A stretch of 45,395 nucleotides of DNA from an uncultured Dehalococcoidales bacterium (lineage in GTDB: Bacteria > Chloroflexota > Dehalococcoidia > Dehalococcoidales > UBA2162), in the NCBI GenBank assembly GCA_964354005.1, contig CAYGYD010000001.1, positions 1 through 45,395 on the forward strand, given 5' to 3'. The notes beneath the pieces were generated by a model that ran no database searches, had not been told where the DNA came from, and saw nothing but the letters and a program-made list of their open reading frames with translations. Below are positions 10,424 to 40,940 of this stretch, in pieces (positions within the stretch are counted from its first letter, which is position 1; the number at the start of each line of letters is the position of its first letter). The translations under genes were made by a program, and so were the position numbers.

Positions 10424-10699
10424 TTAGCTTCGGCGGTCCTCGGACCTTTCGTCACTTCTTCGGCGCTCGCCCAGTCGGTAGACCTGGATGGCAAAAACAG
10501 CCGTACCAAACAGGCATATTAGGATAGTGACCACAATTTCTATCCATAGGATGGCTGAGTTGTCCTCGACAAAATAAACCTCACCGTTGGCCGCAATCAT
10601 CACCATATGGACCGCCCAAGCTAAAGCTAGGGCGATCAGAAGGAGTTGGCTCGCTAGAACGGTTATGGCAAACTTCAGTCGTCTGCCGGGCGGTGCCAT
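10424..10699 (-). CDS. Small membrane protein (91 aa) translationally coupled to the giant surface protein
   Basis: Two hydrophobic helices and a highly charged C-tail (ERRRSDERSEDRRS). Its GGAGAG Shine-Dalgarno overlaps the TGA stop of the upstream gene (minus strand TGAGGAGAGCAGCATG, nt 10712-10697). Confidence 0.6.
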   Translation of the reverse strand: MAPPGRRLKFAITVLASQLLLIALALAWAVHMVMIAANGEVYFVEDNSAILWIEIVVTILICLFGTAVFAIQVYRLGERRRSDERSEDRRS

Positions 10700-10709
10700 G
10701 CTGCTCTCC

Positions 10710-13700
10710 TCAATTGCGGCGAACTATTCCTGATGGCGGACCGCTATCTTCTGCCCACCTCTTGACTAAGTCGCGCCGGCGCCTCAATATTATCATAATA
10801 GTGCCAGAAATTGCCACTAACATAGCACCAATTATTAGTGCCAATACGTACCAGTTGACAACCGCTGGCGATTCAGTCTTTATATCCAACACTTCTTCCG
10901 GCGCACTGTCGCTTAGAATCACGCCGGAATAGAGTTCGGCCCGGAAGGTATAGGTGCCGCTGACCCACCCCGATGATGGTACATATTCCCAGTTACCACT
11001 GGTGGCACCCACCGGCAGCACACTTCCTGAAAAGACAATGACATCCTCAAGGGGTTGTCCATTCAGACTGACCTTCAAAACGAGCTTGGTATCGGTCGAG
11101 TCCTCGCTTGCATTGACCAGCTCATAGGTTATGCTCACCGCGGTGATGTGAAGAGCTGCCGAATAGCTTGGGATGGCGCTAAAAAGGCTGATTTCTGGCT
11201 GAGGCTCGGGGGTTGTGGCCACACTGGGCTCCTCCACGACGGAGAACGAACCGGTGAGATCGTTCACACTCGCCTGGAATACCCCGGTAGTCTGCTTGGC
11301 AACGACGAAGCTTACCTCTTGGCTGGCCCCGGCGGCCAGCTGGACTGTCTGCTTCATAATCTCAGAGCCACGGCTCGAACTGACATTTAAGGTTACATCG
11401 TAGCTGCCACCGACATCGCCTATATTATTGACCGTAACCCTGACAACTACTGCTTCATTGATACGGGCCTTTGCCAGGCTAATCTTCAGGCCATTTACTG
11501 TGAAGGTGGCCGGTTGTCCCAGCGTGGTGAAAGTATATTCCTCAGACTCGGCGAGATTATTTGCCTGGTCGCGCGATATAACTGTTAAGTGATAAGTAGT
11601 ATATGGCGCGAGCCCAGTTAGTTCAACTACATGGCTGGTAACCGCCGTTTCGTCAAGAGGTGAGAGACTCTCTGGACTGGCCCAGTACTTCACTTGGCTG
11701 GTGCTTTCCTCGTTAGTTGTCCACCGGATTATCGCACTCGTTTTGGTAATATCGCTGACGATGATGCTGGAGATCACGGGCGGTGTTCCGTCACTCGGGG
11801 GCAGACCTCCACCTCCACCACCTCCGCCCGCTGGCGGGGTGGGTGCGTTGACAGTAATAGTAATGTTCTCGTAGTCGGTCAGTGAGCCATCGGACACCTC
11901 GAAGTGGACATTGGAATAAGTCCCAACCTCAGCCGTGGTTGGTGTCCAGGAAAAGGTACGGATGGCCGCGTTGAAGCTGGCGCCTTGCGGCAGGTTGGAG
12001 GCAGAGTAGGTCAAGTTGTCACCGTTGGGGTCGGTAGCTGAGATGGTGAACTGAAGTAGCTGCCCGGCGACAACCGACTTGTTGCCGATACTATTAAGGA
12101 CCGGCGGCTCATTGGTGGTAGTGGAGGTAACGGTAATGGTAATGTTCTCGTAGTCGGTCAGTGAGCCATCGGACACCTCGAAGTGGACATTAGAATAGGT
12201 GCCGACCTGACCTGATGTTGGTGTCCAGGAAAAGGTACGGATGGCCGCGTTAAAGCTGGCGCCTAACGGCAGGTTAGAGGCTGAATAGGCCAAGTTGTCG
12301 CCGTTAGGGTCAGTGGCTGAGATGGTAAACTGGAGGGACTGCCCGGCAGTAACCGACTTGTTGCCAATGGGGTCAAGCACGGGCGGTGAGTTCGGAGGTG
12401 GGACAGCGTTGACGGTGATGGTGATGTTCTCGTAGTCGGTCAGTGAGCCGTCGGAGACCTCGAAGTGGACATTGGGATAGGTGCCAACCTGACCTGATGT
12501 TGGTGTCCAGGCGAAGGTTCGGGTGGCCGTGTTGAAGCTGGCGCCTAACGGCAGGTTAGAGGCTGAATAGGCCAAGTTGTCGCCGTTAGGGTCAGTGGCC
12601 GAGATGGTGAACTGAAGTAGCTGCCCGGCAGTAACCGACTTGTTGCCGATTGCGGCAAGCACCGGCGGCTGATTGGTCCCACCCGCTGAGGTTATTTCTA
12701 TGCCGTTGATCTCCGGATTTTCAATATAGGGGGTAAAATCTATATTGAGCTGGCCGTCCTGAACCACAATAGAGTTAAACCTCTTTACCAGCGCCGTGCT
12801 GTGGCCGGCCTCGGCATATATGTCCAGGTTATCCAGTGCTAGCTGCCCTTCAATCAAGACGTCAAAGACCCTCTGCCCAGAGCCAGTTATGCCACTGTAT
12901 GTCTCAGCAAAGTGAAGAATAACCGTGTAGGTGCCATTACCCAGGTCAACGCGGTAGCCGCTGAGACTATATCTCTGGGTCTGATAAATACGGTCGTCCT
13001 CAGTTCCATTGATAGCGTAACCGGTGCCTCGGTCATCAGTGTAGTTCGGGCCGTAGAACCCCCAGCTCCCCGAGGTATATGCCCGGTCCGCTTGCCAGAT
13101 ATTGCTAGAGCTATCTGTGTACACACCACCGCCAGCCTCCACCCTTAGCGGGAGAGATGGCGATGCGGTAACGGTGATGGTGATGTCCTCGTAGTCAGTC
13201 AGCGAGCCATCCGATACCTCGAAGTGGACGTTGGAGTAGGTGCCAACCTGACCTGTGGTTGGCGTCCAGGAGAATGTCCGTGTCCCGGCATTGAAGCTTG
13301 CTCCGGATGGTAGATTGGAGGCGGAATAGGTCAGTGGGTTGCCGTCCGGGTCAGTGGCTGAGATGGTGAACTGGAGTTGACTGCCAGCCACTGTCGTCTT
13401 GTTACCTATCGGCGCAAGCACCGGCGGCTGATTGCCACCGCTCACCACGGTTATCGTGATGTTCTCGTAGTCGGTCAGTGAACCATCGGAGACCTCAAAG
13501 TGGACATTAGAATAGGTGCCAACCTGACCCGATGTTGGTGTCCAGGAAAAGGACTTGGTGCTCGTGTTAAAGCTAGCACCTTGCGGCAGGTTGGAGGCTG
13601 AATAGATCAAGTTGTCGCCGTTGGGGTCAGTTGCTGAGATGGTGAACTGAAGTAGCTGCCCGGCAGTAACCGACTTGTTGCCAATGGTGTTAAGAACTGG

Positions 13701-15602
13701 CGGCTGATTGGTAGGAGGGCCGGAGCCGTACTCAAGAGCGCCCATATCAGGAGCTGCACCTGTGTATGGCCAAGGGCTGTTGGCATCGTTGAAACCGGGG
13801 AGTATTATCCCCTTGTCTATAGCCGGCGAGGTATCTTGCAGCCTGAAGTCAGCGATGGTTGGGGAAGGGTTGACAAACTTCGGGTTGTCGAACAGTCCAT
13901 GTGCTTCCTGCCCTGATGCCGTCCGCCACGAATTGAAGGTGGTGAAAGTCCTGTAGTTAGACTCACCCGCTATCCAATAGCGATTCCACCAGCCATGGTC
14001 TCCGCCTGGGGCACCCGTGCTTTCCTCCCAGTACAGGTTGTAGTCCCAATCATTTATCGGCTCCTGGAAACCCATCCTGGCTATCAGGTCGGGATGCTCG
14101 TACTGAGCCATATTCTCGACATGTTGACGGCTGACAAGGATGTTGTTGCGGAAGTGGTGATTATAGAAGGCTCCTCCCGCCCAGTTCGTGAAGCCGCAGC
14201 CGTCCGGGTCGTAGGCGCCCGAACTCTCCCACCAATATGTCTTGTAGTAGAAGGTATTCTGATAGAAAAAGGTCTGCCCGCTTGAGTCCTTGCCGAGCTT
14301 GGTGGCCGTCCCGTTAAAGTCATAAATCAGATTCCTGAAAACATATATAGGACCGATGACCCCGCCCGGGCCAAGGCTTATGCCAACGCCACCCCGTCCC
14401 CTGCGGCAGAAATGGAGGCGGTTACTCCATATCCTAACATTGATGCCCGCACCATCCATTTCAACGATGTCATCGCCGGTATCCCAAATCTCATTTTCAT
14501 AAAGGTCGCTGTCCTTCCGCGCAGCACCCCAGTCTATGGCATCCCCCGTAAAAAAGCCGGGGAAGTTAGGTGCGCCGTAGATTCCGTCACCGGCACCGCC
14601 TGATGTGCCGGCTCGCAGAATATTTCTCCGGATGACCATGTTCCCACCAGAGTAGAGGAGACTCATTCCTCCGTTGCCCTCGCAGCCAGAGACAACATTG
14701 CCCCGCCCCAGAACAAAGCCACCGCTTCCTTCACCCGGGCCAAACATAAAGCCGGCTCCCTCATCAATGCAGTCCTCAACGCGGTTGAAATCTCCGGTAA
14801 GCTGCACCAGATAGGAGCTGGAAACCAACCTAATTTTAGAGGCTCCCGGGACATGGATTTGACCGATAAAGCGATTGTAGCTACCACTGATGCTCAGGCC
14901 CAACCAGCCAGTGAAAATAACATCGCCGTCACCATATGGTACCCACTTGATGTAATTGTTTGCCAGCCCGGTGGAAGATATGTTGTAAGTACCGGTGTAG
15001 GTTCCCCCGTGAAGATAGACAGTTGTGCCAGGCTGGGCGAGTGCCGCGGCCCGTGACGGTGTTTTTAGAGGGGCGGCTAGTGTGCCTGGGTTGCTGTCGC
15101 TACCTGTAGGCGAGACATGAAGCGAGTTACCGGTTGATGGTGGGTCTTCGTCCCACATCCTGACTACAGCGTTGTGGGATGTCGGTCCGCTCACCCCGTC
15201 GGGGTCAGAGTAGGTCACCCGAACCTCATACTCTGTGTTAGGCTGGACAAAGAGGATATTGCCTCGCCATTGCTTATAGTAGGGGTTCGTCATGTATTCT
15301 ATATTTGGACGCTCGCCCCATCCGGTGTTGGGTACCGGTATCTCCACCCTTCTGTCGACCACCATCGGTATGGGCGCTGCCTTCCAGGTACCGCCGCTAG
15401 GACGGTACTCTATTACCGCCTGGTTGTTCTTGTTGTCATCCCCAGTGAAGCTCGAATAGACACTGATTGAGGTGAAAGTCGGCACCAGTTCAATGGTTCC
15501 GACCGTAGTCGCATTTGACTGGGCAGCTACTACACCAGGGAGAGTGAAAGAGATTGATAAAGCAATTAGTAGCCCCGTTAAGCACCGGGCAAATTTCTTC
15601 AT
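10710..15602 (-). CDS. Giant secreted, membrane-anchored surface protein with beta-helix, cadherin-like, malectin, Fn3 and CARDB domains
   Basis: - Sec signal peptide (MKKFARCLTGLLIALSISFTLPGVVAAQS).
- Pectate-lyase-type right-handed beta-helix (LHVSPTGSDSNPGT.. to ..FRLQDTSPAIDKG, ~nt 13728-15125).
- Five PPVL..GNKSV..ATDPNGDNL.YSASNLP..FSWTP.. cadherin-like/Ig repeats.
- Malectin-like domain (RVEAGGGVYTDSSSNIWQADRAY.., ~12687-13154).
- Gly8 linker, Fn3 (~11523-11789) and CARDB-like domain (~11235-11510).
- C-terminal TM helix plus RRRRD stop-transfer (10785-10862). Confidence 0.9.
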   Translation of the reverse strand: MKKFARCLTGLLIALSISFTLPGVVAAQSNATTVGTIELVPTFTSISVYSSFTGDDNKNNQAVIEYRPSGGTWKAAPIPMVVDRRVEIPVPNTGWGERPNIEYMTNPYYKQWRGNILFVQPNTEYEVRVTYSDPDGVSGPTSHNAVVRMWDEDPPSTGNSLHVSPTGSDSNPGTLAAPLKTPSRAAALAQPGTTVYLHGGTYTGTYNISSTGLANNYIKWVPYGDGDVIFTGWLGLSISGSYNRFIGQIHVPGASKIRLVSSSYLVQLTGDFNRVEDCIDEGAGFMFGPGEGSGGFVLGRGNVVSGCEGNGGMSLLYSGGNMVIRRNILRAGTSGGAGDGIYGAPNFPGFFTGDAIDWGAARKDSDLYENEIWDTGDDIVEMDGAGINVRIWSNRLHFCRRGRGGVGISLGPGGVIGPIYVFRNLIYDFNGTATKLGKDSSGQTFFYQNTFYYKTYWWESSGAYDPDGCGFTNWAGGAFYNHHFRNNILVSRQHVENMAQYEHPDLIARMGFQEPINDWDYNLYWEESTGAPGGDHGWWNRYWIAGESNYRTFTTFNSWRTASGQEAHGLFDNPKFVNPSPTIADFRLQDTSPAIDKGIILPGFNDANSPWPYTGAAPDMGALEYGSGPPTNQPPVLNTIGNKSVTAGQLLQFTISATDPNGDNLIYSASNLPQGASFNTSTKSFSWTPTSGQVGTYSNVHFEVSDGSLTDYENITITVVSGGNQPPVLAPIGNKTTVAGSQLQFTISATDPDGNPLTYSASNLPSGASFNAGTRTFSWTPTTGQVGTYSNVHFEVSDGSLTDYEDITITVTASPSLPLRVEAGGGVYTDSSSNIWQADRAYTSGSWGFYGPNYTDDRGTGYAINGTEDDRIYQTQRYSLSGYRVDLGNGTYTVILHFAETYSGITGSGQRVFDVLIEGQLALDNLDIYAEAGHSTALVKRFNSIVVQDGQLNIDFTPYIENPEINGIEITSAGGTNQPPVLAAIGNKSVTAGQLLQFTISATDPNGDNLAYSASNLPLGASFNTATRTFAWTPTSGQVGTYPNVHFEVSDGSLTDYENITITVNAVPPPNSPPVLDPIGNKSVTAGQSLQFTISATDPNGDNLAYSASNLPLGASFNAAIRTFSWTPTSGQVGTYSNVHFEVSDGSLTDYENITITVTSTTTNEPPVLNSIGNKSVVAGQLLQFTISATDPNGDNLTYSASNLPQGASFNAAIRTFSWTPTTAEVGTYSNVHFEVSDGSLTDYENITITVNAPTPPAGGGGGGGGLPPSDGTPPVISSIIVSDITKTSAIIRWTTNEESTSQVKYWASPESLSPLDETAVTSHVVELTGLAPYTTYHLTVISRDQANNLAESEEYTFTTLGQPATFTVNGLKISLAKARINEAVVVRVTVNNIGDVGGSYDVTLNVSSSRGSEIMKQTVQLAAGASQEVSFVVAKQTTGVFQASVNDLTGSFSVVEEPSVATTPEPQPEISLFSAIPSYSAALHITAVSITYELVNASEDSTDTKLVLKVSLNGQPLEDVIVFSGSVLPVGATSGNWEYVPSSGWVSGTYTFRAELYSGVILSDSAPEEVLDIKTESPAVVNWYVLALIIGAMLVAISGTIMIILRRRRDLVKRWAEDSGPPSGIVRRN
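11850..13703 (-). repeat. Five ~258-bp intragenic tandem repeats (cadherin-like modules), arranged 2 + malectin insert + 3
   Basis: Units lie at 13443-13703, 13170-13427, 12411-12668, 12129-12386 and 11850-12107. They share identical runs such as AATGTTCTCGTAGTCGGTCAGTGAGCCATCGGACACCTCGAAGTGGACATT. Confidence 0.9.
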
Positions 15603-15661
15603 TATCTGCCTCCCCGTTACTCTTGGTAAGCGTCTAGCTTATCTACTAACCCCACTTGAAT

Positions 15662-15690
15662 AGCTTAAAGGCTCGGAACAGTATTGTCAA
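15662..15690 (-). promoter_or_regulatory. Candidate promoter of the giant surface-protein gene
   Basis: Reading the minus strand: TTGACA (15690-15685), 17-nt spacer, TAAGCT (15667-15662). A 9-bp inverted repeat lies immediately upstream at 15697-15723. Confidence 0.4.
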
Positions 15691-16167
15691 TGATTCCAAA
15701 GTACTTATTTCTACAGTACTTTGTACGAATTACCTAGTTCAGCCGGATGTTTCATAACTTTGGTGCCTTTGTCTAGAATCTAATCTTCACTCAAAGCATT
15801 CGGCTGAGGTTCGGCCGTTCGCCGGCTAGTTCGGCGATAGCTTACCAGGTAAGATCAGACCGGACTGCCCGTAAGATAACTTTACACAGTCTACGCAAAG
15901 TGGCATAATAAATGCACCAGAGGCATGACCATACGCTTGGGAGGCCGGATTCTCTTCAGTGCCAGTATTGGAATAGCCTCTGGTGGAGTCAAAGACGTAT
16001 TTCGTCTCATCGGTAGCTCTGTACCGTGTCGTCAGTGGGAATCCTGCCCACATAAAAAACCCAGTAAGCATGATTGACAGAAAAAAGAGACTGAGAGAAA
16101 GAGACCAGCCGGCAGGGGAACATCCTGATATTTGTGACTTGGGTGACCCGCGAGAGTCGGAAATCGC

Positions 16168-16959
16168 ATGCTAAGAGCCAAAGTGCTTTATTCAAACACT
16201 GAATTGTACGGAGTTCGCAGTGAGTATTACCAAGACATCCTAGACCATGTTGCCTGTGCGCTTTCGAGGGCTTATGGTTCCAGCCAGGTCCGTATTCTTG
16301 ATATCTTGCCTGCGGGTGGTGATTACCTTGTCGGACTGGGACAGCGTCTTGACCACGTGTCACTGACGGCTTTTGAACTGTCGCCGGGTGTCAGAGACCA
16401 CACGCTTTTGACGCTCAGGAGCTTCGACATGGAGGACCAGGTCAACTTTCTGATCATGGACGAGACTTCAGATCATTGGAAAATACCTTGCAGTGATGAA
16501 TCCTTTGACTGTATTACCTGCTTCAACCGCCTGAATCTGGTTGCTGACCCTCGGCGGCTTCTGTCAGAGATAAGCCGGGTTCTTAAAACGACTGGACTGT
16601 TGGTCGTTACCAATGTAAACAGACTTAGCCTAGTTGGCTTATACTCTGTTCACATTTCACTTAAGCAGCGACAACTCTTGTCCCGAACACAACTTGCCGC
16701 TGGTTCAGTCAGGCCAATTAGCTCGCTGGTCATGCTCCGCATGCTTCACCGGAATGGTCTGAGAGTCATGCATTTCGGTGGCCTAGGTGGCCCCAGACCG
16801 CTGTATTATGGCCTGCTGGCCCGGATATTCAGTCGGTTAGGTGACGCGGATAAAAGACTTCGCTATGAATACCGCCGGGTTTCCAGCTTGTGGGAACCTT
16901 CTTCATTCTGGTCACGTTTTGCCAATGTAAACTTCATTATGGCCACGAAGGTGAAGTAG
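16168..16959 (+). CDS. Class I SAM-dependent methyltransferase-like protein (atypical motif I)
   Basis: ILDILPAGGDY in place of the LDxGxGxG motif. Post-I/II region FDCITCFNRLNLVADPRRLLSEISRVLKTTGLLVV is typical of Methyltransf_11/25-type folds. Confidence 0.55.
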   Translation: MLRAKVLYSNTELYGVRSEYYQDILDHVACALSRAYGSSQVRILDILPAGGDYLVGLGQRLDHVSLTAFELSPGVRDHTLLTLRSFDMEDQVNFLIMDETSDHWKIPCSDESFDCITCFNRLNLVADPRRLLSEISRVLKTTGLLVVTNVNRLSLVGLYSVHISLKQRQLLSRTQLAAGSVRPISSLVMLRMLHRNGLRVMHFGGLGGPRPLYYGLLARIFSRLGDADKRLRYEYRRVSSLWEPSSFWSRFANVNFIMATKVK

Positions 16960-16960
16960 G

Positions 16961-20176: not shown

Positions 20177-20256
20177 TTTATCACCAGTTCCTCATTATCT
20201 CGTTTAGCATGAAGGTCACCGGCGGCTTTGAAATACTCTAGCGATACGGGTGATTC

Positions 20257-26246: not shown

Positions 26247-26252
26247 ACAGTC

Positions 26253-29717: not shown

Positions 29718-29748
29718 GTTTAATTCCAGTCGTATCTTAACGTTATCC

Positions 29749-32282: not shown

Positions 32283-33280
32283 GGATTCCTCGGCAAAGTG
32301 GCCTTCCACAGGCCAAGACGTCCCCACCCGTGTGCTGTTTTGTCTCGAACCAGCTCTTCGTAAACCGAGATGATTCTTCGACCGATTTGCCCGGCCTCCA
32401 TATGAGCGATTCTTCCGCGGCCATCAGTCCTCTGTCCCCAACGCACGGCCAGTTCTAGCTTCCGGGCGGCGTCTTCTGGGTCTTGCGAACATAGATAGCA
32501 TCCCGGGGTGTTGCCGATAACTTGAGGCACATCTCCAACTGGCACAGAAACAATCGGTAGGTTGCAAGCCATAGCTTCTTTGATAACCATAGGGGAGCCT
32601 TCCGCATCAGAGACTAGCAGCAATACGTCACAGGCATTCATGTATTTCGGCACCGCCGAAAGTGGCTTGCCCGAAACCAGAATCAGCTCTGCCTCAGGCA
32701 CTCTCGTCTTCAGGTGAGCTATCGCCTCCTGTACAATGTCAAACCTCTTCTCTGGTCGGAAATACTCTCCAGCCCAAAGTACCAGTTTCTTCTCCTGTGG
32801 GAGGTCAAGTTCCTCTCGCGCCTGCTTCTGGGGCATCGGCTTGAAAAGGTCGAAGTCAATCCCACAGGGGATGACGATGGCTTGGCTAAACCGGGCTTTT
32901 TCCTTCATCTCCTCCGACACCACAATCGTTCGGTCGACCAGAGGTGTGATTATCCGGCAGACACGCGCCTGATAGGTGGTGCGGAATACCTCCGGACCGT
33001 GGTGAGTAAGAACCACCGGGTGCAGGAACTGGGCCCGGGCGATCAGTCCGGAAAACGCATAGTGGGCGTGGAGCAGGTCATAGCGCTTCGTCAAAAGCCG
33101 GGCCCAAAGTCGGGGGAATGCCCATAGATAATTAAGAGTGTTTTTTCTACCGTTAACGAAGAATACCTCTAACTCCACGCCTTGCTTTCGCAGGGCTTCC
33201 GCTTGTTCTCGGACAAAGGTACCAAAAGATGGCATCTCGGGTATGGGATACATATTGGTAACAACCAAGACTTTCACCAT
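32279..33280 (-). CDS. GT4 family glycosyltransferase
   Basis: SDAEGSPMVIKEAMACNLPIVSVPVGDVPQVI (E-x7-E region). Confidence 0.85.
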   Translation of the reverse strand: MVKVLVVTNMYPIPEMPSFGTFVREQAEALRKQGVELEVFFVNGRKNTLNYLWAFPRLWARLLTKRYDLLHAHYAFSGLIARAQFLHPVVLTHHGPEVFRTTYQARVCRIITPLVDRTIVVSEEMKEKARFSQAIVIPCGIDFDLFKPMPQKQAREELDLPQEKKLVLWAGEYFRPEKRFDIVQEAIAHLKTRVPEAELILVSGKPLSAVPKYMNACDVLLLVSDAEGSPMVIKEAMACNLPIVSVPVGDVPQVIGNTPGCYLCSQDPEDAARKLELAVRWGQRTDGRGRIAHMEAGQIGRRIISVYEELVRDKTAHGWGRLGLWKATLPRNP

Positions 33281-33406
33281 CTCACTCCTGTCTTATTGAT
33301 ACTCCGGTCATTTCAGACGCAGGGTCTCTGTGCTTCTGACACTCTGGCGACTCTGCTTTCAGGTCTCCTTATTTTCCTCACAGCACTCCGGTTCTATTTC
33401 ACCCGG

Positions 33407-34552
33407 CTAGCTCGTTTTTTCTTGATAGGCAACGTCAACATTTAACTCGCCCCGAGACCGAGTGAAGTCCCGAATGGAATCACAAATGTAGCTCACTTCC
33501 TCCTCAGTCAGCTCGGGGTACATGGGAAGGGAGATTATCTCCTTTGTTATTCTTTCGGTAATTGGCAACCAAGCGTTGCCTCCGTCATACTGGCGCCAGG
33601 CTTCCTGAAGGTGAATGGGGAAGGGATAATGCATCCCGGTGCCGACACCTTTAGTCTCCAGCCAAGCCCGAAGTTCGTCTCGGTACGCAGTTCTGATGAC
33701 ATAGAGATGATAGACATGCTTCGCCCATGACATCTCCTGCGGTGGCACCATTGATGGAGGCAGTAGAGCATCGTAGGCCCTAGCCAGGCTTCGCCGCTTT
33801 TCAATCCACTCATCAAGATGGGGAAGCTTTACCTTTAAAACAGCTGCCTGGATTTCATCGAGGCGACCGTTGATTCCCATGACAGCGTGAACATACTTTG
33901 TGTCTTGGCCATGGTCTCGCAACATCCGGCACCGCTTGGCTATATCAGGGTCGGAAGTGGTAATCATACCCCCCTCACCATAAGCACCTAGGTTCTTGGT
34001 GAAGTAGAAACTAAAGCAACCAGCATCCCCGAGCGAGCCGGTACGCTGTCCCTTGTATTCAGCACCATGAGCTTGGCAGGCATCCTCGATAACCCTCAGG
34101 CGATAGGACCTGGCTAATTCTAGTATTGGGGTCATATCGGCCGGGTGTCCGTAGAGATGCACGGGGATGATGGCTTTAGTCCTCTTGTTTATCATTCTTT
34201 CTACTTGAGAAGGGTCTATGTTATAGGTATTAAGGTCAATGTCAACCAGTACCGGCCGGGCGCCTGTCAGAACAATAGCCTCGACGGTAGCAATGAAGGT
34301 ATGAGAAACCGTAATTACCTCGTCGCCCGGTCCAACCCCACAGGCGAGGAGAGCCAAGTGCAGAGCATCGGTACCTGAGCCTACACCAATGGCAGACTTA
34401 GTGCCACAGTAAGCAGCGAAATCTGATTCAAAGGTCTGAACGTTCTTGCCCAGGAATAGCTGCATACCGTCCAGTGCCTTGCCTATCTCAGCCAGCACTT
34501 CTTCCTTTATACCCTGATATTGTTTTTTCAGGTCAACCAATGGTATACGCAT
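33407..34552 (-). CDS. DegT/DnrJ/EryC1/StrS family PLP-dependent sugar aminotransferase (copy 2, WbpE/WlbC-like context)
   Basis: GSGTDALHLAL, VHLYGHPADM, IEDACQAHGAEYKG and SFYFTKNLGAYGEGG. Overlaps the upstream acetyltransferase by 20 nt. Confidence 0.9.
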   Translation of the reverse strand: MRIPLVDLKKQYQGIKEEVLAEIGKALDGMQLFLGKNVQTFESDFAAYCGTKSAIGVGSGTDALHLALLACGVGPGDEVITVSHTFIATVEAIVLTGARPVLVDIDLNTYNIDPSQVERMINKRTKAIIPVHLYGHPADMTPILELARSYRLRVIEDACQAHGAEYKGQRTGSLGDAGCFSFYFTKNLGAYGEGGMITTSDPDIAKRCRMLRDHGQDTKYVHAVMGINGRLDEIQAAVLKVKLPHLDEWIEKRRSLARAYDALLPPSMVPPQEMSWAKHVYHLYVIRTAYRDELRAWLETKGVGTGMHYPFPIHLQEAWRQYDGGNAWLPITERITKEIISLPMYPELTEEEVSYICDSIRDFTRSRGELNVDVAYQEKTS

Positions 34553-35210
34553 TTGTTATTCTCCCTATCAGGTCACTGTATGGTTTGTCTCTGAGACCGG
34601 TGGTACAGATTAGGTCTCCTATTTTGCAGGCAACCTGTGCCGGATTACCATAGGCAACCACACCAGGTGGGATGTCTTTAGTCACTACACTTCCGGCACC
34701 GATTACCGAGTATTCACCGATGACTACGCGGGGAAGCACGCAGCAGCTGATACCGATCTGAGCCCCCTTCTTGATGCGCGGGCCTTGCATGCACTCTATG
34801 GCATCGGGGCAGCCGGGGTGAACGTCATTAGCTAAGGTAACCCCAGGACCCAGGAAAACATCATCTTCGACGATTGTGAATTGGGTGACATAAACATTGT
34901 TGTGAATCTTGACGTTATTTCCAATTATGCAGCCGTAGTCGATAATGGAGTTACTCCAGATGCGCAAGTTGTTTCCGATAATATTCTCCTCCCTGATAAT
35001 CACATTGTGGCCGGTCTCCAGATTTTGTCCAATGCGGCTACCCCGGTAGATAACGGTGCCAGAACGAATGTGAGCACCGGCACCAATAACCAGCGGGTGA
35101 CCGTCACCGCGACTTGGGGTATAGCCAAGACGTACACCATCGTCAATTATGGCTTTCCCCCCCAGTCTCACTATCTGACTATTATCTTCTGGTTCGATAA
35201 AAGACTCCAT
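34533..35210 (-). CDS. Left-handed beta-helix (hexapeptide-repeat) sugar N-acetyltransferase (WbpD/WlbB/QdtC-like)
   Basis: Repeated [LIV]G-x4 hexapeptides (IGNNLRIWSNSIIDYGCIIGNNVKIHNNVYV...). Start at the internal ATG 35210, downstream of the upstream gene's stop at 35218. Confidence 0.85.
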   Translation of the reverse strand: MESFIEPEDNSQIVRLGGKAIIDDGVRLGYTPSRGDGHPLVIGAGAHIRSGTVIYRGSRIGQNLETGHNVIIREENIIGNNLRIWSNSIIDYGCIIGNNVKIHNNVYVTQFTIVEDDVFLGPGVTLANDVHPGCPDAIECMQGPRIKKGAQIGISCCVLPRVVIGEYSVIGAGSVVTKDIPPGVVAYGNPAQVACKIGDLICTTGLRDKPYSDLIGRITNAYTIG

Positions 35211-35217
35211 TTTTCCC

Positions 35218-36276
35218 TCACTTCTCAACGAATTGTGGTTGTCCTCGCTTGATATCGTCCGCGAGTGATTTTGTCTTAACTCGCTGCCCACCGTTCGCCA
35301 GTGATATATCGGCTGCTTCCAGAATGCTGACTACTTTAAATCCAGCCCGGCCGTCACTCCTTGGTCTCTTACCTTTGACTATACACTCTAGGAAATGGCT
35401 GCATTCCAGCTTGAGAGGCTCAGCGTTGGAGATAAAGGGTATGGTCACATCGCCATAGCGGTAGTTGGGCGGCCAAGCCGAGAACCCATTGCTGCCATCG
35501 CTGGATATAACGAGTCCCTTATCGTAGATATGTATTTTCTCCGTTTCGGAAACATCATCATATACCGCCATTTTTTCGCTACCGACGATGGTGATCTCTC
35601 GGATCTTGCGTGGGTGGAGCCAGCTCACATGTATGTGACCCATGGTGCCGTTAGCGAACAGCAACTCGAGGTAAGCTATATCACAGACCTTGGGGTCTAC
35701 ATGGTGACTACCGCGGGCACTTACGGCGATAGGCTCCTTGTTCAACAACGAAAGCATAATGCTTATATCATGGGGAGCTAGGTCCCAAAGAACGTTTACA
35801 TCAGGCCGGAACAGGCCAAGGTTAAGTCGGTGGGCATCAATGCTATAAATCTCGCCCAGCTCACCACTGTCCACCAGTTTTCTCAGTAAATCCACCGCCG
35901 GATGATATTCATAAGTGTGTCCCACCATGAGCACCAGGTTCCGCTTCTCCGCCAGTTCAATAAGTTCCCAAGCTTTATGGCTATTGGTAGTCATCGGTTT
36001 TTCTATCAGGACATGCTTATTACGGAGTAACGCCTCCTTTGCCAGTTTATAGTGTGTATCGACCGGAGTGACTATTACCACCGCATCCACGCCCTCCTCT
36101 AGGAGGTCTCCGAAATCGGTGGTTGTTTGTACATAGGGATATTGAGTTCGAACCTGCTGAAGCTTATGCTCATCAAGGTCACAAACTGTGGTCAGCTTGG
36201 CCTCAGACAACTCGTGATAGTTCCTGATGTGCTTTGGCCCCCAGTAACCACAACCCACAACGCCAATATTAACCAT
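35218..36276 (-). CDS. Gfo/Idh/MocA family NAD-dependent sugar oxidoreductase (WbpB/WlbA-like)
   Basis: MVNIGVVGCGYWGPKH Rossmann N-terminus and EKP motif (VLIEKPM). The internal ATG 36276 is preceded by GGAAGGAGGAG. Confidence 0.85.
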   Translation of the reverse strand: MVNIGVVGCGYWGPKHIRNYHELSEAKLTTVCDLDEHKLQQVRTQYPYVQTTTDFGDLLEEGVDAVVIVTPVDTHYKLAKEALLRNKHVLIEKPMTTNSHKAWELIELAEKRNLVLMVGHTYEYHPAVDLLRKLVDSGELGEIYSIDAHRLNLGLFRPDVNVLWDLAPHDISIMLSLLNKEPIAVSARGSHHVDPKVCDIAYLELLFANGTMGHIHVSWLHPRKIREITIVGSEKMAVYDDVSETEKIHIYDKGLVISSDGSNGFSAWPPNYRYGDVTIPFISNAEPLKLECSHFLECIVKGKRPRSDGRAGFKVVSILEAADISLANGGQRVKTKSLADDIKRGQPQFVEK

Positions 36277-36298
36277 CTTGCTCCTCCTTCCCGATTTG

Positions 36299-36997
36299 TC
36301 AGCTGCCATCTTGGCTGAGAATCGTGCGCACAGTTAGCAGTGCAATCTTCGCATCCAAGAGTGCTGACTGCCTGTTTATGTAGTCAATATCAAGACGTAC
36401 CATGTCCTCAAAAGAGAGACTCTTCCGCCCGGAGACCTGCCAAAGGCCGGTGATACCTGGTTTGACACGAAGCCTCTCCCGATGCCAGTCCTTATACATT
36501 CGCACCGCAAAAGGGATATCCGGTCGGGGACCAATGAATGACATCTCTCCCTTCAGTATATTGAATAGTTGTGGAAGCTCATCCAGATTAGTCTTCCTCA
36601 GCAGAGTGCCAAACCTCGTCACCGACATCCCATCAGCTTTGTAGATGCTCTGTCCATTCTCGTCCACTCGGTAAGGCGCATTTTCGAGGATGTACCGGCA
36701 GAGATATGACTTATATTCACCGTCGTCATTATCTATAGGCATGCACCGAAACTTGTAACATTTGAAGCGGTGCCCGTCCTTCCCAACTCGCTCTTGTACA
36801 AATATCGGATTTCCCGGCGAATCCACCCTGATCACGACGGCAATCAGGATCAGGATGGGGAGGGAAGCAGCTATGGCCAGGAGTGCCAGCAGGCGGTCCA
36901 GAATTCCCTTCCAGTTGGGATAGCCGAACTGGTGATAGCCCCTTTCCCTCTCCCTTGCCTCCCTAGCAACCGGAATCTGCTTCTCGGCCAGTTTCAT
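36299..36997 (-). CDS. Initiating polyprenyl-phosphate sugar-phosphate transferase (small PglC/WbaP-C-type bacterial sugar transferase)
   Basis: One N-terminal re-entrant helix; RVGKDGHRFKCYKFRCM, DELPQLFNILKGEMSFIGPRP, PGITGLWQVSGR. Its ATG overlaps the upstream stop (ATGA at 36994-36997). Confidence 0.9.
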   Translation of the reverse strand: MKLAEKQIPVAREARERERGYHQFGYPNWKGILDRLLALLAIAASLPILILIAVVIRVDSPGNPIFVQERVGKDGHRFKCYKFRCMPIDNDDGEYKSYLCRYILENAPYRVDENGQSIYKADGMSVTRFGTLLRKTNLDELPQLFNILKGEMSFIGPRPDIPFAVRMYKDWHRERLRVKPGITGLWQVSGRKSLSFEDMVRLDIDYINRQSALLDAKIALLTVRTILSQDGS

Positions 36998-38328
36998 CGC
37001 ACCCCCACACTCTGTTTGGCCAATACCTCCGGCCCATGGCGACCAATGCCCTCGTAAACGATATTTGCCTCAGTCACTTTGTCGGGGTCAAGAAGGTTAC
37101 GACCATCGATAAGAATGGGATGCTTCATTGAAGAGGCTATCCTTACCATGTCCAGTTCTTTGAATTCATCCCAGTCAGTAACGAGTATCAAGGCATCGCT
37201 CCCGACAGCTACCTGATAAGCGTCAGAAAAGTAGGTCACCTGAGGCATGAGTCTAGCTGCCATCGGCATAGCCAATGGATCGTAGGCTTTAACTTGGCAG
37301 CCTTCCTGCTGCAAAAGGGAGATGATTGATAGTGAAGTCGCCTCCCGCATATCATCCGAATTCGGCTTAAAGGAGAGACCGAGAATACCGATAGTCTTGC
37401 CCTTCAGGGAACCGAGCAGCCGGCGCAGTTTTCCTATGGCTATGTGCGGCTGGCGCTGGTTAATCTTCTGTACAGCACGGACCAATGGCAATGGAACCCG
37501 CCGGCTCTTGGCCATATGGATGAGCCCCCTGACATCCTTGGGAAGGCAACTGCCTCCCCAACCTAATCCAGCACCTAGACAGCCCTCACCACACCGAGGG
37601 TCCATCCCCATTACCTTAGCTATTGTCGTAACGTCGACGCCATATGCGTCGCAAAGCAAGGCTATTTCATTGATGAAGCTGATTCTGGTGGCGAGGAAAA
37701 CATTCGAAGCGTACTTTGACATCTCGGCGGTTTTGTTGTCACATATGATTGTCGGGGAATCCAGTGGCGCGTAGAGTTCAGCCACTGCCTTGCCCACGTT
37801 TCGGTCGGATGACCCGACTACGATCCTAGCAGGATGCATGAAGTCAAAGACGGCTATGCCTTCGCGCAGAAATTCAGGGTTAGACGCCACAGGGAAAAGG
37901 TGACTGCTACGACCGGAACAGGCAAGTATTTTGGATACGAGGTCGGCGGTGCCTACTGGCACTGTGCTCTTGATGGCAACAACCATCGGCTCACTGGCGG
38001 CTTCGGCGATGCTTCTGGCTGCTGAGCGTACGTATTTCAAGTCGGGTTTTCCGTTGGTGCTGGATGGCGTACCTACAGTTATAAAAGCAAACTCAGCACC
38101 CGATAACCCCTGTGCATAGTCGCTAGTTATGCTTAATCTTCCCTTCGCCCAGTTGCTCTGCCAAAGCTCAGGAAGGTCTTGCTCACTAACCGGCATTATC
38201 CCGCCTTCCAGAGCGTTCAACTTGTCCGAATCAATCTCCACCAGAGTTACCTTATTACCAAGCTCGGCAAAACAAACTGCCGTAACTAAGCCCACATATC
38301 CAGCCCCGATAACACTAATATTTCTCAT
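36994..38328 (-). CDS. UDP-glucose/GDP-mannose dehydrogenase family nucleotide-sugar 6-dehydrogenase
   Basis: MRNISVIGAGYVGLVTAVCFAELG and the catalytic-Cys motif GGSCLPKD. 444 aa. Confidence 0.9.
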   Translation of the reverse strand: MRNISVIGAGYVGLVTAVCFAELGNKVTLVEIDSDKLNALEGGIMPVSEQDLPELWQSNWAKGRLSITSDYAQGLSGAEFAFITVGTPSSTNGKPDLKYVRSAARSIAEAASEPMVVAIKSTVPVGTADLVSKILACSGRSSHLFPVASNPEFLREGIAVFDFMHPARIVVGSSDRNVGKAVAELYAPLDSPTIICDNKTAEMSKYASNVFLATRISFINEIALLCDAYGVDVTTIAKVMGMDPRCGEGCLGAGLGWGGSCLPKDVRGLIHMAKSRRVPLPLVRAVQKINQRQPHIAIGKLRRLLGSLKGKTIGILGLSFKPNSDDMREATSLSIISLLQQEGCQVKAYDPLAMPMAARLMPQVTYFSDAYQVAVGSDALILVTDWDEFKELDMVRIASSMKHPILIDGRNLLDPDKVTEANIVYEGIGRHGPEVLAKQSVGVR

Positions 38329-38366
38329 GAATCTGCATGCCTCCTACCTACCATTCAAGCTATCTA

Positions 38367-40940
38367 CTACTCTTCACTCCCCTGTGCATGGGCGAAAGCA
38401 CTCACCACATGGGGGTCAAAACGCTGCCCTGAATCGGCAATAAGCTTCTGTACTGCCATTTCAGGGTCTATTGTTCCTTGAGGTGATGGTCCTGAAGTCA
38501 TGGCGTCGAAGGTATCAGCGACAGCCAGTATTCTCGCTCCTAATGGGATGTTGTCACCACTGGCGCTAAAGAGGCAATCGGCACCGTCATATCTCTCATA
38601 TCTGTGCAAAATCAAGATTAACGCTGGTGAAAGAAATTCAATCGCTGACAACGCTTTCCACACCAGGTTGAAGCGCGCTCTAAGGACGATGGCTTTATCA
38701 AGAGTGGGTGCTACCATTTGCTCCATCGCGTCCTCAGGAGATAAAACAAGCCCTAGGTCTTTGAGCAGGGCCGCGTAGTGAAGTGCCTGCCGTTCATTTC
38801 TTGTTAGCCCAAGTTTGTCGGCAATAACCAGAGCATACCTGGCCACTCGTTGGGCACTATCTATGTCAAAGAGGTATCGGAGATGCATCGACCGGGCAAT
38901 CTCCCGGCTAATGGCTAGAATAGCCTCCAATGTGGCGAACTGGGCAACTTCTTGCCGCAGCAGTTGGTCTTGTTGAGTTTCTAGCCGGTTGCTAAGGTCA
39001 TCTGCTAGGAACAGAGAACGGTTGCAGAGCACCCGGAGTTCCTGGATTTTGTAACCAAGGTTCTCCAGACTCTCCCGAATGGCCATCGGCATTTGCTTGA
39101 AAGTCGACGATAACAGCTGGCGCGTGCTGTCAAGCTGTGCCTGCGCCTCCTGCTTACTGGTCTCTGCCGCAGACAGCAGGGCATTGATCTCCTCCCCCGA
39201 ACTCTGCCATCTCCTCGGGATAGATATTGAGAAGGTAGTACCCTGCCCTACCTCGCTCTCAATACTCAGCCTGCCTCCTAGGCCTTGAACCAGTACCTTG
39301 GCCAGGTAGAGGTCGTTCCGCTTTTCGCTGGCGAGCATTCCTTCCAGTTGACCCTGGAAGAGCATACTCAGCTCCCGGTGGGCGATAATGTGGTTGCGGT
39401 TAATCAGTTCTATGGTTACGAAGCTTTTACTCTTCTCGTATACACGTATATGTACCCTGTCACCCGGCATGCTGCCCTCGATTTCGCTTCTCAAGGCGTA
39501 GAATAGAGCCTGAGTAAGGCCCCTTCCGTCCACCACGAGCTGGCCCACGTCTTCAACCCCCTCGCTGTCAACCTCAATTCTTCGCTGTATTGCCAGCTCT
39601 TTTGTCTGCTTCATAATCCAGTCAACTGTGTTTCTGAGGTCTACTTCATCGATAATAGCACTGCCGGTGACCCACTCATCTCTTGTCAGACGACGGAGCT
39701 CCTCTGCGACACCCACCAGCTGACTCATGTTTTCCTTAAAGGTTTTCAGTTTGTTGCGTTGTTCAGCAGTAAAATCCTCCGCCTGCACCGGGTCTACCCC
39801 GTCCAGGTAATCCTTTATTCCGGTGATGGGAATCTCAAGTTCTCTGGCGAGGAAGGTAACCCAGGCTAACACTCCCTGCAAAGTTTTCTGCTCTTCCCGG
39901 TGTGCCTGGAGTACTCCACGGGCTAGACTGAGTTCTGGTTCAAGGTCATTTTGGCCAAGGTCAAAACAATAGTTACTTCCTGGGAAGTGTCTCAGGTGAC
40001 TCATCTGTTCAGCAGCAGCCTCACTGACTTCAACGTGATGGCGAAACTTTCGCCTTGTGTTAGAAACTACCGCCGCGCGAATGCTCATGATTGGACTTGG
40101 TTCCTTCTGGCCCAATTGACTTTCATATTCTATGTAACCTCTCTCTAGGTCTTCGCGTTTGTACAGGGTCCTTATTCGACTATCAAAATCAGTGATGAGC
40201 CTCTGGCAAAGAAGTCTTGCCTTCGGACTTGTACTGATAATCACGAAATTATCGCCACCAATATGTCCTACCAAATCGTCTGGATTACCGAATAATCGGA
40301 CTGATTCACACAGTATCGCAGCAACAAGCCGAATAGCGCGGTCGCCCTGAGCGAAACCATACACCTTGTTGAAAGTCTTAAGATTATCCAGGTCAACATA
40401 GATAGCGGCGAAGGTCCCGTTCCGCTCAATTAGGTTCGTAATCTCACTATTTACCTGGCTCAGGTTCGATAATCCGGTTAGCGGATTTACGTTTTCAACC
40501 CGTTCTCTTTGCTTCAAGCAAGTCTCGACCAGAGCCACAACCTCCTTGGGATCGAAGGGTTTTGTAACATAATTATCAGGCCCATCGACGCCTTCAGCTG
40601 TCCTTTTCTTGCTCTCAGTACCGACAACTATGAGTGGAATATGACTCGCTTGTTGCAACTCCTTCAGCCGCCAGCAGATATCAGTGTTTTCGAGGTCAAA
40701 AACTTCGTCGTCAAGAAGAATTATGTCGGGTCTCTCTGTGGAGGCCTTTATAAGTGCTTCAAGCCCGTTCCGCGCTGTTATGACGCCGAGATTGGCATGA
40801 GCCAAGTTAACCTCCAGAATGCCAAGCACCTCTGGGTCATGGTCGATCACCAGTACAGTTCTTTTCCTCGGCGTCGATGGTTCGCCCGCACTTGCTATCA
40901 TTCTTGCCCTAGGTCCAGTCTGAGGTATTGTAATAATCAT
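38367..40940 (-). CDS. Multidomain signalling protein: REC - degenerate GGDEF (GGDNF) - pseudo-histidine-kinase (no phospho-His) - degenerate HD-GYP
   Basis: - REC (aa ~27-147): VLVIDHD, ILLDD, YVTKPF.
- GGDEF fold (aa ~150-320): the signature reads GGDNF (nt 40245-40259) and there is no RxxD I-site.
- DHp-like helix FLARELEIPITGI has Arg where the H-box His should be.
- HATPase-like region lacks the N and G1 boxes but keeps GLGGRLSIESEVGQGTTFSISIP.
- HD-GYP-like C-terminus reads SAQRVA (not HSxRVA), LKDLG (not LHDIGK) and HRYERYDGADC (no GYP). Confidence 0.8.
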   Translation of the reverse strand: MIITIPQTGPRARMIASAGEPSTPRKRTVLVIDHDPEVLGILEVNLAHANLGVITARNGLEALIKASTERPDIILLDDEVFDLENTDICWRLKELQQASHIPLIVVGTESKKRTAEGVDGPDNYVTKPFDPKEVVALVETCLKQRERVENVNPLTGLSNLSQVNSEITNLIERNGTFAAIYVDLDNLKTFNKVYGFAQGDRAIRLVAAILCESVRLFGNPDDLVGHIGGDNFVIISTSPKARLLCQRLITDFDSRIRTLYKREDLERGYIEYESQLGQKEPSPIMSIRAAVVSNTRRKFRHHVEVSEAAAEQMSHLRHFPGSNYCFDLGQNDLEPELSLARGVLQAHREEQKTLQGVLAWVTFLARELEIPITGIKDYLDGVDPVQAEDFTAEQRNKLKTFKENMSQLVGVAEELRRLTRDEWVTGSAIIDEVDLRNTVDWIMKQTKELAIQRRIEVDSEGVEDVGQLVVDGRGLTQALFYALRSEIEGSMPGDRVHIRVYEKSKSFVTIELINRNHIIAHRELSMLFQGQLEGMLASEKRNDLYLAKVLVQGLGGRLSIESEVGQGTTFSISIPRRWQSSGEEINALLSAAETSKQEAQAQLDSTRQLLSSTFKQMPMAIRESLENLGYKIQELRVLCNRSLFLADDLSNRLETQQDQLLRQEVAQFATLEAILAISREIARSMHLRYLFDIDSAQRVARYALVIADKLGLTRNERQALHYAALLKDLGLVLSPEDAMEQMVAPTLDKAIVLRARFNLVWKALSAIEFLSPALILILHRYERYDGADCLFSASGDNIPLGARILAVADTFDAMTSGPSPQGTIDPEMAVQKLIADSGQRFDPHVVSAFAHAQGSEE

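Follow-up and report, generated by a model that had tools for sequence, protein, structure and literature searches.

A membrane-anchored, lectin-bearing beta-helix protein, related in sequence to pectate lyase Pel9A, is encoded beside a Wzx/Wzy glycan operon in an uncultured Dehalococcoidales bacterium

Some organisms that build an extracellular polymer also encode an enzyme that cuts it, as is known for RbmB (PMC12993940, PMC11637428), WceF (PMC7949094), and disaggregatase (PMC12369344), each of which acts on the polymer of its own producer. Here we describe a locus of an uncultured Dehalococcoidales bacterium that may hold a similar device in a different architectural form. The stretch of DNA analyzed, called the window below, is the entire contig CAYGYD010000001.1 (45,395 nucleotides, contig C1 in our numbering) of assembly GCA_964354005.1, a metagenome-assembled genome (MAG) of 2.07 Mb in 303 contigs that is 76% complete. 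It encodes a giant anchored protein, a small membrane protein with two transmembrane (TM) segments, and an operon for the synthesis and export of a glycan (Table 1). Based on sequence, a structural model, and analogy, we give a probability of about 0.5 to the reading that the giant protein is a surface-displayed, membrane-anchored, lectin-bearing enzyme resembling lyases of polysaccharide lyase family 9 (PL9), which would trim or release the acidic polymer of the cell itself.

All the open reading frames listed in a preliminary description of this DNA were recovered at their positions, and the domains named there agreed with the results of Pfam and NCBIfam searches. In the giant protein, a signal peptide is followed by an N-terminal beta-sandwich, a right-handed beta-helix, two He_PIG repeats, a malectin domain, three further He_PIG repeats, and an fn3 domain, after which two beta-sandwich domains without family assignment lead to a TM helix and the sequence RRRR. 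The malectin domain scored 105 bits with PF11721 against a cut-off of 23, which places it in that family, and its profile matched the malectin structures 2jwp/2k46 of the Protein Data Bank (PDB) with an E value of 2e-18. He_PIG reached 242 bits across five stretches, and residues 1278-1360 were recognized by both fn3 (25.3 bits) and Pur_ac_phosph_N (33.5 bits). The terminal domain, which has the pattern GW..G.Y.F.AEL, is kept in all the homologues linked to a gene for the small TM protein, and CARDB (PF07705) is on record for the homologues P0003 and P0004 and for the anchor protein of genome G017 described below. The N-terminal beta-sandwich contains many invariant columns (residues 32-139, alignments A1 and A2), and the top Foldseek match, 2uve, likewise has an N-terminal Ig-like domain. 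The family defined by this N-terminal domain is large and uncharacterized, with 194 clusters at E < 1e-30, and may hold new lyase specificities.

The suggestion of the preliminary description that the beta-helix acts on glycans is backed by homology to the pectate lyase Pel9A and by fold matches to lyases that cut the polymers of their own producers, while catalysis itself is predicted from sequence. A profile of 22 family members (alignment A2) matched Pel9A (PDB 1ru4) with an E value of 2.4e-15, and the invariant K435 in the motif TKLG was aligned to FKLGG of Pel9A, that is, to Lys273 (chain index 248 plus a 25-residue numbering offset), which is the catalytic base of PL9 (residue roles from PMC10992409). 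D339, D378, D/E383, R423, N424, and K435 are retained in all 22 members, with a single conservative D378E exchange. The Ca2+ ligands of PL9 are Asp209, Asp233, and Asp237; the invariant D339 was placed on Asp234 of Pel9A in one stretch of the hidden Markov model (HMM) alignment, but the HMM stretches are in different registers. The family motif D377-D378-x-x-E381-x-D/E383 (DDGIExE) resembles the calcium site DDGFD of Pel9A when the two are matched by eye. With an AlphaFold model of the helix (pLDDT 67, pTM 0.75), Foldseek retrieved 1ru4 at an E value of 1.7e-7, and the best fold matches in VIA were the alginate lyase 6kfn (Z 20.8) and Vibrio cholerae RbmB 9ozl (Z 20.4), followed by AlgE epimerases, PL6 lyases, and Pel9A at Z 17-19. 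The match to Pel9A (Z 17.9, 306 residues aligned) shows the right-handed parallel beta-helix fold. The Pel9A-like Pfam family PF22842 is on record for the giant protein, and hmmscan at E 0.01 did not list it. The helices encoded in three other genomes with related loci (G017, G313, and G350) and in a distant family (f78) gave no usable register when added to alignment A2 and belong to other beta-helix families.

The polymer on which such an enzyme might act can be predicted from the glycan operon. It encodes a UDP-sugar 6-dehydrogenase, a phosphoglycosyl transferase (PGT), a GFO/IDH/MocA oxidoreductase (GFO), an acetyltransferase, two DegT aminotransferases, a radical S-adenosylmethionine (SAM) enzyme, a methyltransferase, three GT4 and three GT2 glycosyltransferases (GTs), Wzx, and a Wzy_C-family protein, and the PGT, Wzx, Wzy, and six GTs constitute a Wzx/Wzy-dependent pathway. 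The Pfam family Wzy_C also covers O-antigen ligases and O-oligosaccharyltransferases (O-OTases), and the product of 22981-24414 may instead be one of these. A 462-aa gene at 24533-25921, absent from the genes named in the preliminary description, has no Pfam or NCBIfam match; its product has TM helices at both ends with an ectodomain of ~320 amino acids between them, and the Atlas clusters closest to it, at a score of 0.95, carry Wzz/GNVR, which we take as no more than a lead. It is probably a chain-length regulator of the Wzz or polysaccharide co-polymerase (PCP) type. With it, the assembly line is plausibly complete, and its product would be a polymer and not a short oligosaccharide. The UDP-sugar 6-dehydrogenase, which is also encoded near the module in G017, G313, and G350, makes a uronic-acid polymer plausible, as is needed for a substrate of beta-elimination. 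The trio of DegT, acetyltransferase, and GFO at 33407-36309, also found near the module in G017 and G313, is probably a WbpB/E/D-like set for a 3-acetamido sugar, given its matches to the NCBIfam UDP-GlcNAc 3-dehydrogenase (209 bits, below cut-off) and to NeuD/PglB/VioB acetyltransferases. At 28584-31137, the other DegT gene (431 bits) is overlapped or abutted by that of the radical SAM enzyme (Radical_SAM 40 bits; TIGR04426 85 bits, far under the cut-off of 450), whose distant likeness to DesII suggests that it may catalyze an amino-sugar deamination or rearrangement step. This gene content makes a hexuronic acid and a 3-acetamido amino sugar probable constituents of the polymer.

The juxtaposition of the giant gene and glycan genes recurs outside the window. 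We took GT2, GT4, Wzx, Wzy, and PGT as core glycan genes, defined linkage as the presence of at least two of them within 10 kb, and found neighbors by searching the stop-to-stop frames of public contigs with the proteins of the window. Among 20 full-length homologues of the N-terminal domain of the giant protein, from species-representative genomes that are mostly Dehalococcoidia MAGs, 11 are linked in this sense, and two further ones have one or two cluster-type genes at a contig edge. In the genome to which the window belongs, 2.4% of positions satisfy the same definition (0.8% outside this contig), so the juxtaposition is more than chance would give, although no p-value is attached because related genomes are not independent samples. 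The finding that would have been fatal to the preliminary description, namely that the giant gene and the glycan operon are never linked, was not what we obtained; they are linked in many Dehalococcoidia genomes. The usual order in the related loci is operon, giant gene, gene for the 91-aa two-TM protein, and convergent GalE gene, and the window follows it apart from an inserted divergent pair of methyltransferase and toroid genes. GT, Wzx, Wzy, or PGT genes lie directly upstream on the same strand in the loci L011/L085, L013, L014, L025/L092, L028/L095, L034, L036, L047, L086, L087, L089, L098, and L099, and glycan genes stand beside the homologue in another arrangement in L020/L023, L027, L041, L044, L091, L097, and L101. 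The giant gene is usually the last large gene of the operon, on the same strand and with short gaps. The helix domains in the related loci are 31-42% identical to that of the window (~60% in two close homologues) and the sets of GTs differ, so the linkage has persisted through considerable divergence. Named records with homologues of the giant protein come mostly from Dehalococcoidia, Dehalococcoidales, or Dehalococcoidaceae MAGs. On one short contig (L008, 2-5317), two genes of the giant family flank GalE; one has the anchor and a small TM gene, and the second starts across GalE.

The small membrane protein, described earlier as coupled to the giant protein, proved to be a real and strongly conserved neighbor of anchored proteins. 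Its TM segments span residues 19-37 and 43-61, and it has no Pfam match. Its family, which has no consistent name, comprises at least 287 homologues with invariant Q18, W28, M32, G39, F43, E45, E54, and an RLGERR tail, and the polar residues within the membrane segments are strikingly conserved. In every locus with a readable neighbor, the small gene stands directly downstream of a gene for a protein with a Trp-TM-Arg-rich anchor; no anchored neighbor was resolved in G436, and the contig of G042 is too short. Homologues of the giant protein that end in dockerin or have no TM tail are not directly followed by the small gene. In alignment A4, the Trp is the sole invariant column and precedes the TM helix and an Arg-rich stop-transfer sequence; in the window the anchor reads SPAVVNW-TM-RRRR and continues for 19 further residues. 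Neither PEP, PGF, nor LPXTG motifs were seen on reading the anchor, no sorting-signal model is among its NCBIfam matches, and the anchor does not conform to the known C-terminal signals PEP-CTERM, PGF-CTERM, LPXTG, and MYXO-CTERM. The 91-aa protein thus appears to be the conserved genetic partner of the anchor, and we infer that the two may also pair physically. Of 400 genomes sampled from the class, 8 have the small TM gene. One of these, G350, belongs to the same order and is complete; in it, the gene follows that of an anchored ~730-aa protein without Pfam match, and GT and dehydrogenase genes lie nearby. In more distant genomes the neighbor is a ~730-aa protein with the same anchor, and two of the four distant genomes scanned also carry a different beta-helix type and PKD domains. 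Tandem duplication of the small gene after one anchored protein was observed in L091 (12764-13769), L124 (G011:C12, 9745-10750), and L126 (1490-2476).

In two other genomes the helix and the anchor are divided between proteins. In G017 (L122, G017:C4, 10040-13908), a 749-aa protein with a Pel9A-like helix, He_PIG, and dockerin is followed by a 533-aa protein with cohesin, CARDB, and the Trp-TM-Arg anchor and then by the small TM gene. In G313 (L143, G313:C12, 11787-14248), a helix-He_PIG-dockerin protein precedes a 229-aa anchored protein, for which no cohesin call was made, and the small TM gene; the giant protein of L011/L085 also ends in dockerin. The occurrence of a single chain in the window and of a docked enzyme with an anchored scaffold elsewhere suggests that helix and anchor form one surface device.

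If these observations are combined, the following scheme can be drawn. The locus would be an accessory cell-surface island of a Dehalococcoidia bacterium without peptidoglycan and with a surface layer (S-layer), as has been reported for Dehalococcoidales (PMC10284905). A search of the genome of the window for the FtsW/RodA/SpoVE family (PF01098) gave no match, which fits the reported peptidoglycan loss, although at 76% completeness its absence is not established. By homology, the Wzx/Wzy operon with its probable co-polymerase builds a repeat-unit polysaccharide on undecaprenyl phosphate. The giant protein, encoded by the next transcription unit on the same strand, would be exported by means of its signal peptide and held in the membrane by the Trp-TM-RRRR anchor, and the Ig-like stalk would keep the malectin domain and the Pel9A-like helix away from the membrane. 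The helix might then cleave the acidic polymer of the cell by Ca2+-assisted beta-elimination with Lys435 as the base while the malectin domain grips the chain; their joint action, comparable to that of RbmB, WceF, and the Methanosarcina disaggregatase on the polymers of their producers, would trim, release, or remodel the coat. Several points weigh against this scheme. Glycan genes were not detected within 10 kb in seven of the 20 full-length homologues, in addition to the two with one or two such genes, the genomes compared are not independent samples, and family f78 has the pair of helix and small TM genes without detectable glycan genes. In the window itself, a divergent gene pair separates the giant gene from the operon, which implies that the giant gene has its own promoter. 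As for the enzyme, the HMM alignment with Pel9A runs in two overlapping registers and places directly only the Lys and one Asp, the DDGIE/DDGFD correspondence is a reading by eye, the helix model is only moderate, and the fold is shared by hydrolases (GH28, GH136) and C5-epimerases, whose Z values come within ~3 of the top.

Part of this evidence would also be expected if the genes simply shared a hypervariable surface island, with no biochemical interaction between their products, in which joint exchange and diversification of accessory surface genes is driven, for instance, by phages. The giant protein would then be an adhesin or a lyase that scavenges foreign polymers of the sediment, such as pectin or alginate-like material. 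The region is indeed accessory as judged from homology searches; the N-terminal 640 residues of the giant protein gave weak partial matches in four of 60 related genomes and none in 56, including the same-genus G001, where queries with Wzy, the regulator, GalE, the histidine kinase (HK), and SPP also found no orthologue (G001 is 82% complete, and absence is not established). The sparse distribution of the small TM gene in the class, the homologues without glycan neighbors, and the shuffled C-terminal domain sets of the homologues (malectin, dockerin, CARDB, cadherin-like, PKD) agree with such an island, as does the dockerin/cohesin display, which classically serves enzymes that degrade foreign polymers. 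Against it, the linkage has outlasted divergence of the helix to ~31% identity and turnover of the GTs, with the giant gene typically last in the operon, no sugar transporter or catabolic genes accompany the giant gene in the window, and the closest structural analogues include lyases and epimerases that act on the polymer of their producer. We therefore regard a mere surface island as unlikely, if still worth serious consideration. An enzyme on the cell's own polymer need not be a lyase, and the helix might be a uronate C5-epimerase acting after export in the manner of AlgE or AlgG, or another polymer-level tailoring enzyme tethered at the export site. The mannuronan C5-epimerases AlgE4 and AlgE6 and a bifunctional alginate epimerase/lyase scored Z 18.4-18.8, within ~2 of the best match, and both epimerases and lyases begin with abstraction of the C5 proton. 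The sequence homology of the helix is to PL9, PL6, and GH120-type proteins and not to AlgE or AlgG, however, and the conserved Lys aligns to the PL9 base, which makes an epimerase quite improbable.

The giant protein could also be an acceptor of the glycan, that is, an S-layer-like glycoprotein with a purely structural helix, to which the Wzy_C protein acting as an O-OTase, or STT3, transfers the chain. Glycosylation clusters that adjoin the S-layer gene are known in Bacillota, two STT3 genes with the motif WWDYG are present in the genome of the window, and the giant protein has 1.17 N-X-S/T sequons per 100 amino acids against a genome mean of 0.31; the envelope reported for the order, the failure to find FtsW/RodA, and the inclusion of ligases and O-OTases in Wzy_C would all suit an acceptor. 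The lattice protein of an S-layer should, however, be shared by the lineage, and the scattered partial matches of the N-terminal domain among the 60 relatives indicate that the giant protein is not its main S-layer protein. Its 19 sequons equal the number expected from shuffling its composition (19.5 +/- 3.8), the closest homologue has two, and they are not conserved. Moreover, the STT3 genes sit with GT genes of their own on contigs C26 and C44, the PCP-like gene points to a long polymer, and strict conservation of lyase-type Lys and Asp residues would be unexpected in a structural helix. We consider the acceptor role doubtful. The preliminary description had proposed that the giant protein binds, remodels, or is decorated by the neighboring glycan; the linkage underlying this proposal held, and its comparison with S-layer glycoproteins is disfavored. 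A membrane-anchored PL9-like lyase for the cell's own polymer thus remains the reading we prefer. The STT3 genes are a separate observation: C44:5520-8072(-) and C26:3082-5514(-) are frames of 851 and 811 amino acids of the STT3/AglB/PglB family that score above the Pfam cut-off and have GT neighbors. Among 14 control genomes, this family was found only in the four archaea, and a literature search on STT3 in Dehalococcoides gave no relevant paper. N-glycosylation machinery in a Dehalococcoidia bacterium would be notable in its own right.

The genes around the giant gene and the operon differ in how closely they follow the module. GalE travels with it to judge from its homologues (E 1e-157 to 1e-169), which stand convergent after the giant and small TM genes in L011, L025, L089, and L092, while no close orthologue was found in four of five near relatives. 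A methyltransferase homologue divergent from the giant gene was seen only in the two closest loci, L006 (E 2e-81) and L007, and neither the toroid gene nor the regulator gene was found beside the homologues in the related loci examined. The ~30 kb from the giant gene to the regulator can hence no longer be regarded as one self-contained unit, as had been proposed. The intergenic region at 15603-16167 contains sigma-70-like sites on both strands, for example at 15881-15909 on the plus strand (10/12) and at 15992-15964 on the minus strand, which are consensus matches only. The methyltransferase and toroid genes are one base apart. In VIA, the toroid protein gave a tie at Z 27-31 among cellobiose/GlcNAc 2-epimerases, GH76, and GH88/GH105 unsaturated uronyl hydrolases; the model thus assigns it to a carbohydrate-active superfamily only, and a role as the GH88 unsaturated glucuronyl hydrolase of a lyase pathway, suggested by the first Foldseek matches, is not claimed. 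Its family has 662 homologues, the source-named ones all from Chloroflexota (Anaerolineae, Thermoflexales) except one from Phycisphaerae, and its invariant polar residues include H32, D46, R48, E50, H105, E106, K166, D354, and K355. The regulator had been described as a receiver-domain pseudo-enzyme, and this description was borne out: the domains are present, but GGDEF is replaced by GGDNF and HD by KD (LLKDLG), and ERYDG is not followed by GYP, so that the signatures of active GGDEF and HD-GYP enzymes of cyclic di-GMP metabolism are lacking. Searches in five near relatives gave only partial domain matches and no orthologue of it. An OmpR-type response regulator and a histidine kinase are encoded at 41953-44063, and homologues of this pair (E 4e-57 and 4e-102) lie directly after the giant and small TM genes in L087 (11713-13671); the pair may be the real regulator of the module or merely a syntenic neighbor. 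The window also encodes, at 5351-6229, a presenilin/SPP-type intramembrane aspartyl protease (Pfam SPP, 52 bits).

With regard to the assembly, near-identical DNA is present in sediment metagenomes of several studies, and no RNA run was among the runs listed as carrying it. Short contigs from four public sediment runs, the best-matching of which may be the source sample of the window, bridge the junctions of GalE, small TM, and giant genes, of giant, methyltransferase, and toroid genes, and of toroid and GT2 genes, which argues against a chimeric assembly, and no single contig in these runs spans the whole 20 kb. In contigs of three sediment runs (X1, X2, and X6), 60 bp are skipped at 10276-10337 between the GalE and small TM genes, an indel variant in the population.

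Table 1. Positions of the giant gene, the glycan operon, and adjacent genes in the window
Feature	Position	Strand	Basis
GalE-like NAD-dependent sugar epimerase, convergent with small TM gene	9239-10270	+	Pfam Epimerase, 203 bits
91-aa two-TM protein	10424-10699	-	10 nt after stop codon of giant gene
Giant protein, 1630 aa	10710-15602	-	Pfam domains and sequence reading
C-terminal anchor of giant protein: invariant Trp ~1584, TM helix, RRRR, cytoplasmic tail	10713-10871	-	
Ig/CARDB-like beta-sandwich region before anchor, residues ~1365-1580	10863-11510	-	
fn3 / purple-acid-phosphatase-N-like domain, residues 1278-1360	11523-11771	-	Pfam
Three He_PIG Ig-like repeats, residues ~976-1262	11817-12677	-	Pfam
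Malectin (CBM57-type) carbohydrate-binding domain, residues 819-962	12717-13148	-	Pfam
Two He_PIG Ig-like repeats, residues ~636-815	13158-13697	-	Pfam and repeat reading
Right-handed beta-helix, Pel9A-like, putative polysaccharide lyase, residues ~155-630	13713-15140	-	
N-terminal beta-sandwich fused to helix, residues ~30-150	15153-15515	-	All-beta in model
Signal peptide of giant protein	15522-15602	-	Basic N-terminus, hydrophobic core, VVAAQS by reading
Divergent intergenic region between giant and methyltransferase genes, 565 bp, presumed promoters	15603-16167	.	Consensus matches
Class I SAM methyltransferase, divergent from giant gene	16168-16959	+	Pfam Methyltransf_11/23/25
Toroid protein, cytoplasmic (alpha/alpha)6-barrel with C-terminal beta-sandwich	16961-18259	+	Model, pLDDT 92.6
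Glycan operon	18256-38328	-	Pfam/NCBIfam
Two GT2	18256-19224, 19184-20176 (18256-20176)	-	Pfam Glycos_transf_2, 132 and 127 bits
Wzx-type flippase	20257-21801	-	Polysacc_synt_3, 274 bits; nine hydrophobic segments in rough hydropathy scan
GT4	21798-22961	-	Glycos_transf_1, 149 bits
Wzy_C-family polymerase	22981-24414	-	Wzy_C, 69 bits; 11 TM segments
Probable polysaccharide co-polymerase, Wzz/PCP-like, 462 aa	24533-25921	-	Topology
GT2 (26253-27305) and second SAM methyltransferase (27293-28234)	26253-28234	-	Pfam
DegT aminotransferase (28584-29801) and radical SAM enzyme (29749-31137)	28584-31137	-	Amino-sugar tailoring
Two GT4	31086-33280	-	Pfam; orthologues E 1e-114 to 1e-155 in L047, L098, L099
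DegT aminotransferase, hexapeptide acetyltransferase, GFO/IDH/MocA oxidoreductase	33407-36309	-	Pfam
Small monotopic PGT, priming	36299-36997	-	Bac_transf, 192 bits; one TM segment
UDP-sugar 6-dehydrogenase	36994-38328	-	Three UDPG_MGDP_dh domains; NCBIfam NDP-sugar dehydrogenase, 450 bits against cut-off of 190
Regulator REC-GGDEF-HATPase-HD_5	38367-40940	-	Pfam; 38 bp upstream of operon

Dehalococcoidia abound in sediments and aquifers, and some of them are organohalide respirers that serve in bioremediation. The envelope of these bacteria, which is poorly understood, consists of a membrane and an S-layer and lacks peptidoglycan, and the conserved module of three parts (glycan operon, anchored lyase/lectin, and small partner) provides a testable handle on how the coat is built and remodeled, a coat that bears on aggregation, attachment, and phage recognition. 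If the complete genome G350 comes from a culture, the module could be tested without isolating the organism of the MAG. As a speculation to which we give little credence, the 91-aa protein and the Trp-TM-Arg tail might compose an undescribed display or sorting system for the fused or docked glycan-active beta-helix proteins of peptidoglycan-less Dehalococcoidia, coupling them physically to the Wzx/Wzy export site, where the polymer would be measured, cut, or passed on while it emerges. Wall-less monoderms have neither LCP nor Wza steps, and such a system would take their place functionally.

That a cluster for an extracellular polysaccharide encodes an enzyme for its own product is already known. 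New in the present locus are a fused, anchored, lectin-bearing architecture that alternates with split forms of the cohesin-dockerin type, a small conserved membrane partner together with an unrecognized anchor signal, and the setting in Dehalococcoidia without peptidoglycan. One of the closest parallels is RbmB (PMC11637428, PMC12993940), a right-handed beta-helix polysaccharide lyase whose gene lies beside the operons for its polymer (vps-I/rbm/vps-II), which uses a Lys as the general base with assistance by Ca2+, and which has matrix lectin proteins encoded in the same region. In the VIA comparison mentioned above (Z 20.4), 291 residues of RbmB were aligned to the helix model with a root-mean-square deviation of 2.6 and a structural identity of 13%. 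RbmB is, however, a small secreted protein of a diderm, whereas the helix of the window shares its chain with a lectin domain, Ig repeats, and a membrane anchor and belongs to a peptidoglycan-less monoderm, and the sequence homology of the giant protein is to PL9 and not to RbmB. That homology extends over the whole helix of Pel9A (PDB 1ru4; PMC10992409), with Lys273 and probably at least one Asp of the Ca2+ site conserved; the identity in the structural alignment is 19%, the giant protein adds an N-terminal beta-sandwich and ~1000 residues, and pectate is an unlikely substrate for it. Pantoea stewartii WceF, with AmsF and Escherichia coli WcaM (PMC7949094), is a beta-helix glycanase encoded inside a Wzx/Wzy exopolysaccharide cluster that modifies the chain length of the anionic polymer of its producer. 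Compared by description only, it differs in being a tailspike-like trimeric hydrolase, periplasmic or secreted, without lectin or anchor modules. The disaggregatase of Methanosarcina mazei (PMC12369344) is an extracellular enzyme that cleaves the acidic, uronate-containing outer polymer (methanochondroitin) of an S-layered cell without peptidoglycan and thereby changes the state of that cell. It is archaeal, however, and a member of the Disaggr Pfam families; these had no match in the giant protein and gave only a weak match (0.003) in the homologue of G313, and no linkage of its gene is described in the text consulted. The split form of the device in G017, with dockerin on the helix enzyme and cohesin on the anchored protein, resembles the cellulosome-type cohesin-dockerin systems, from which the window departs in joining both functions in a single fused chain and in using a TM helix and a small partner for anchoring instead of SLH or a sortase signal, and the cargo of this chain is linked to biosynthesis rather than to catabolism.

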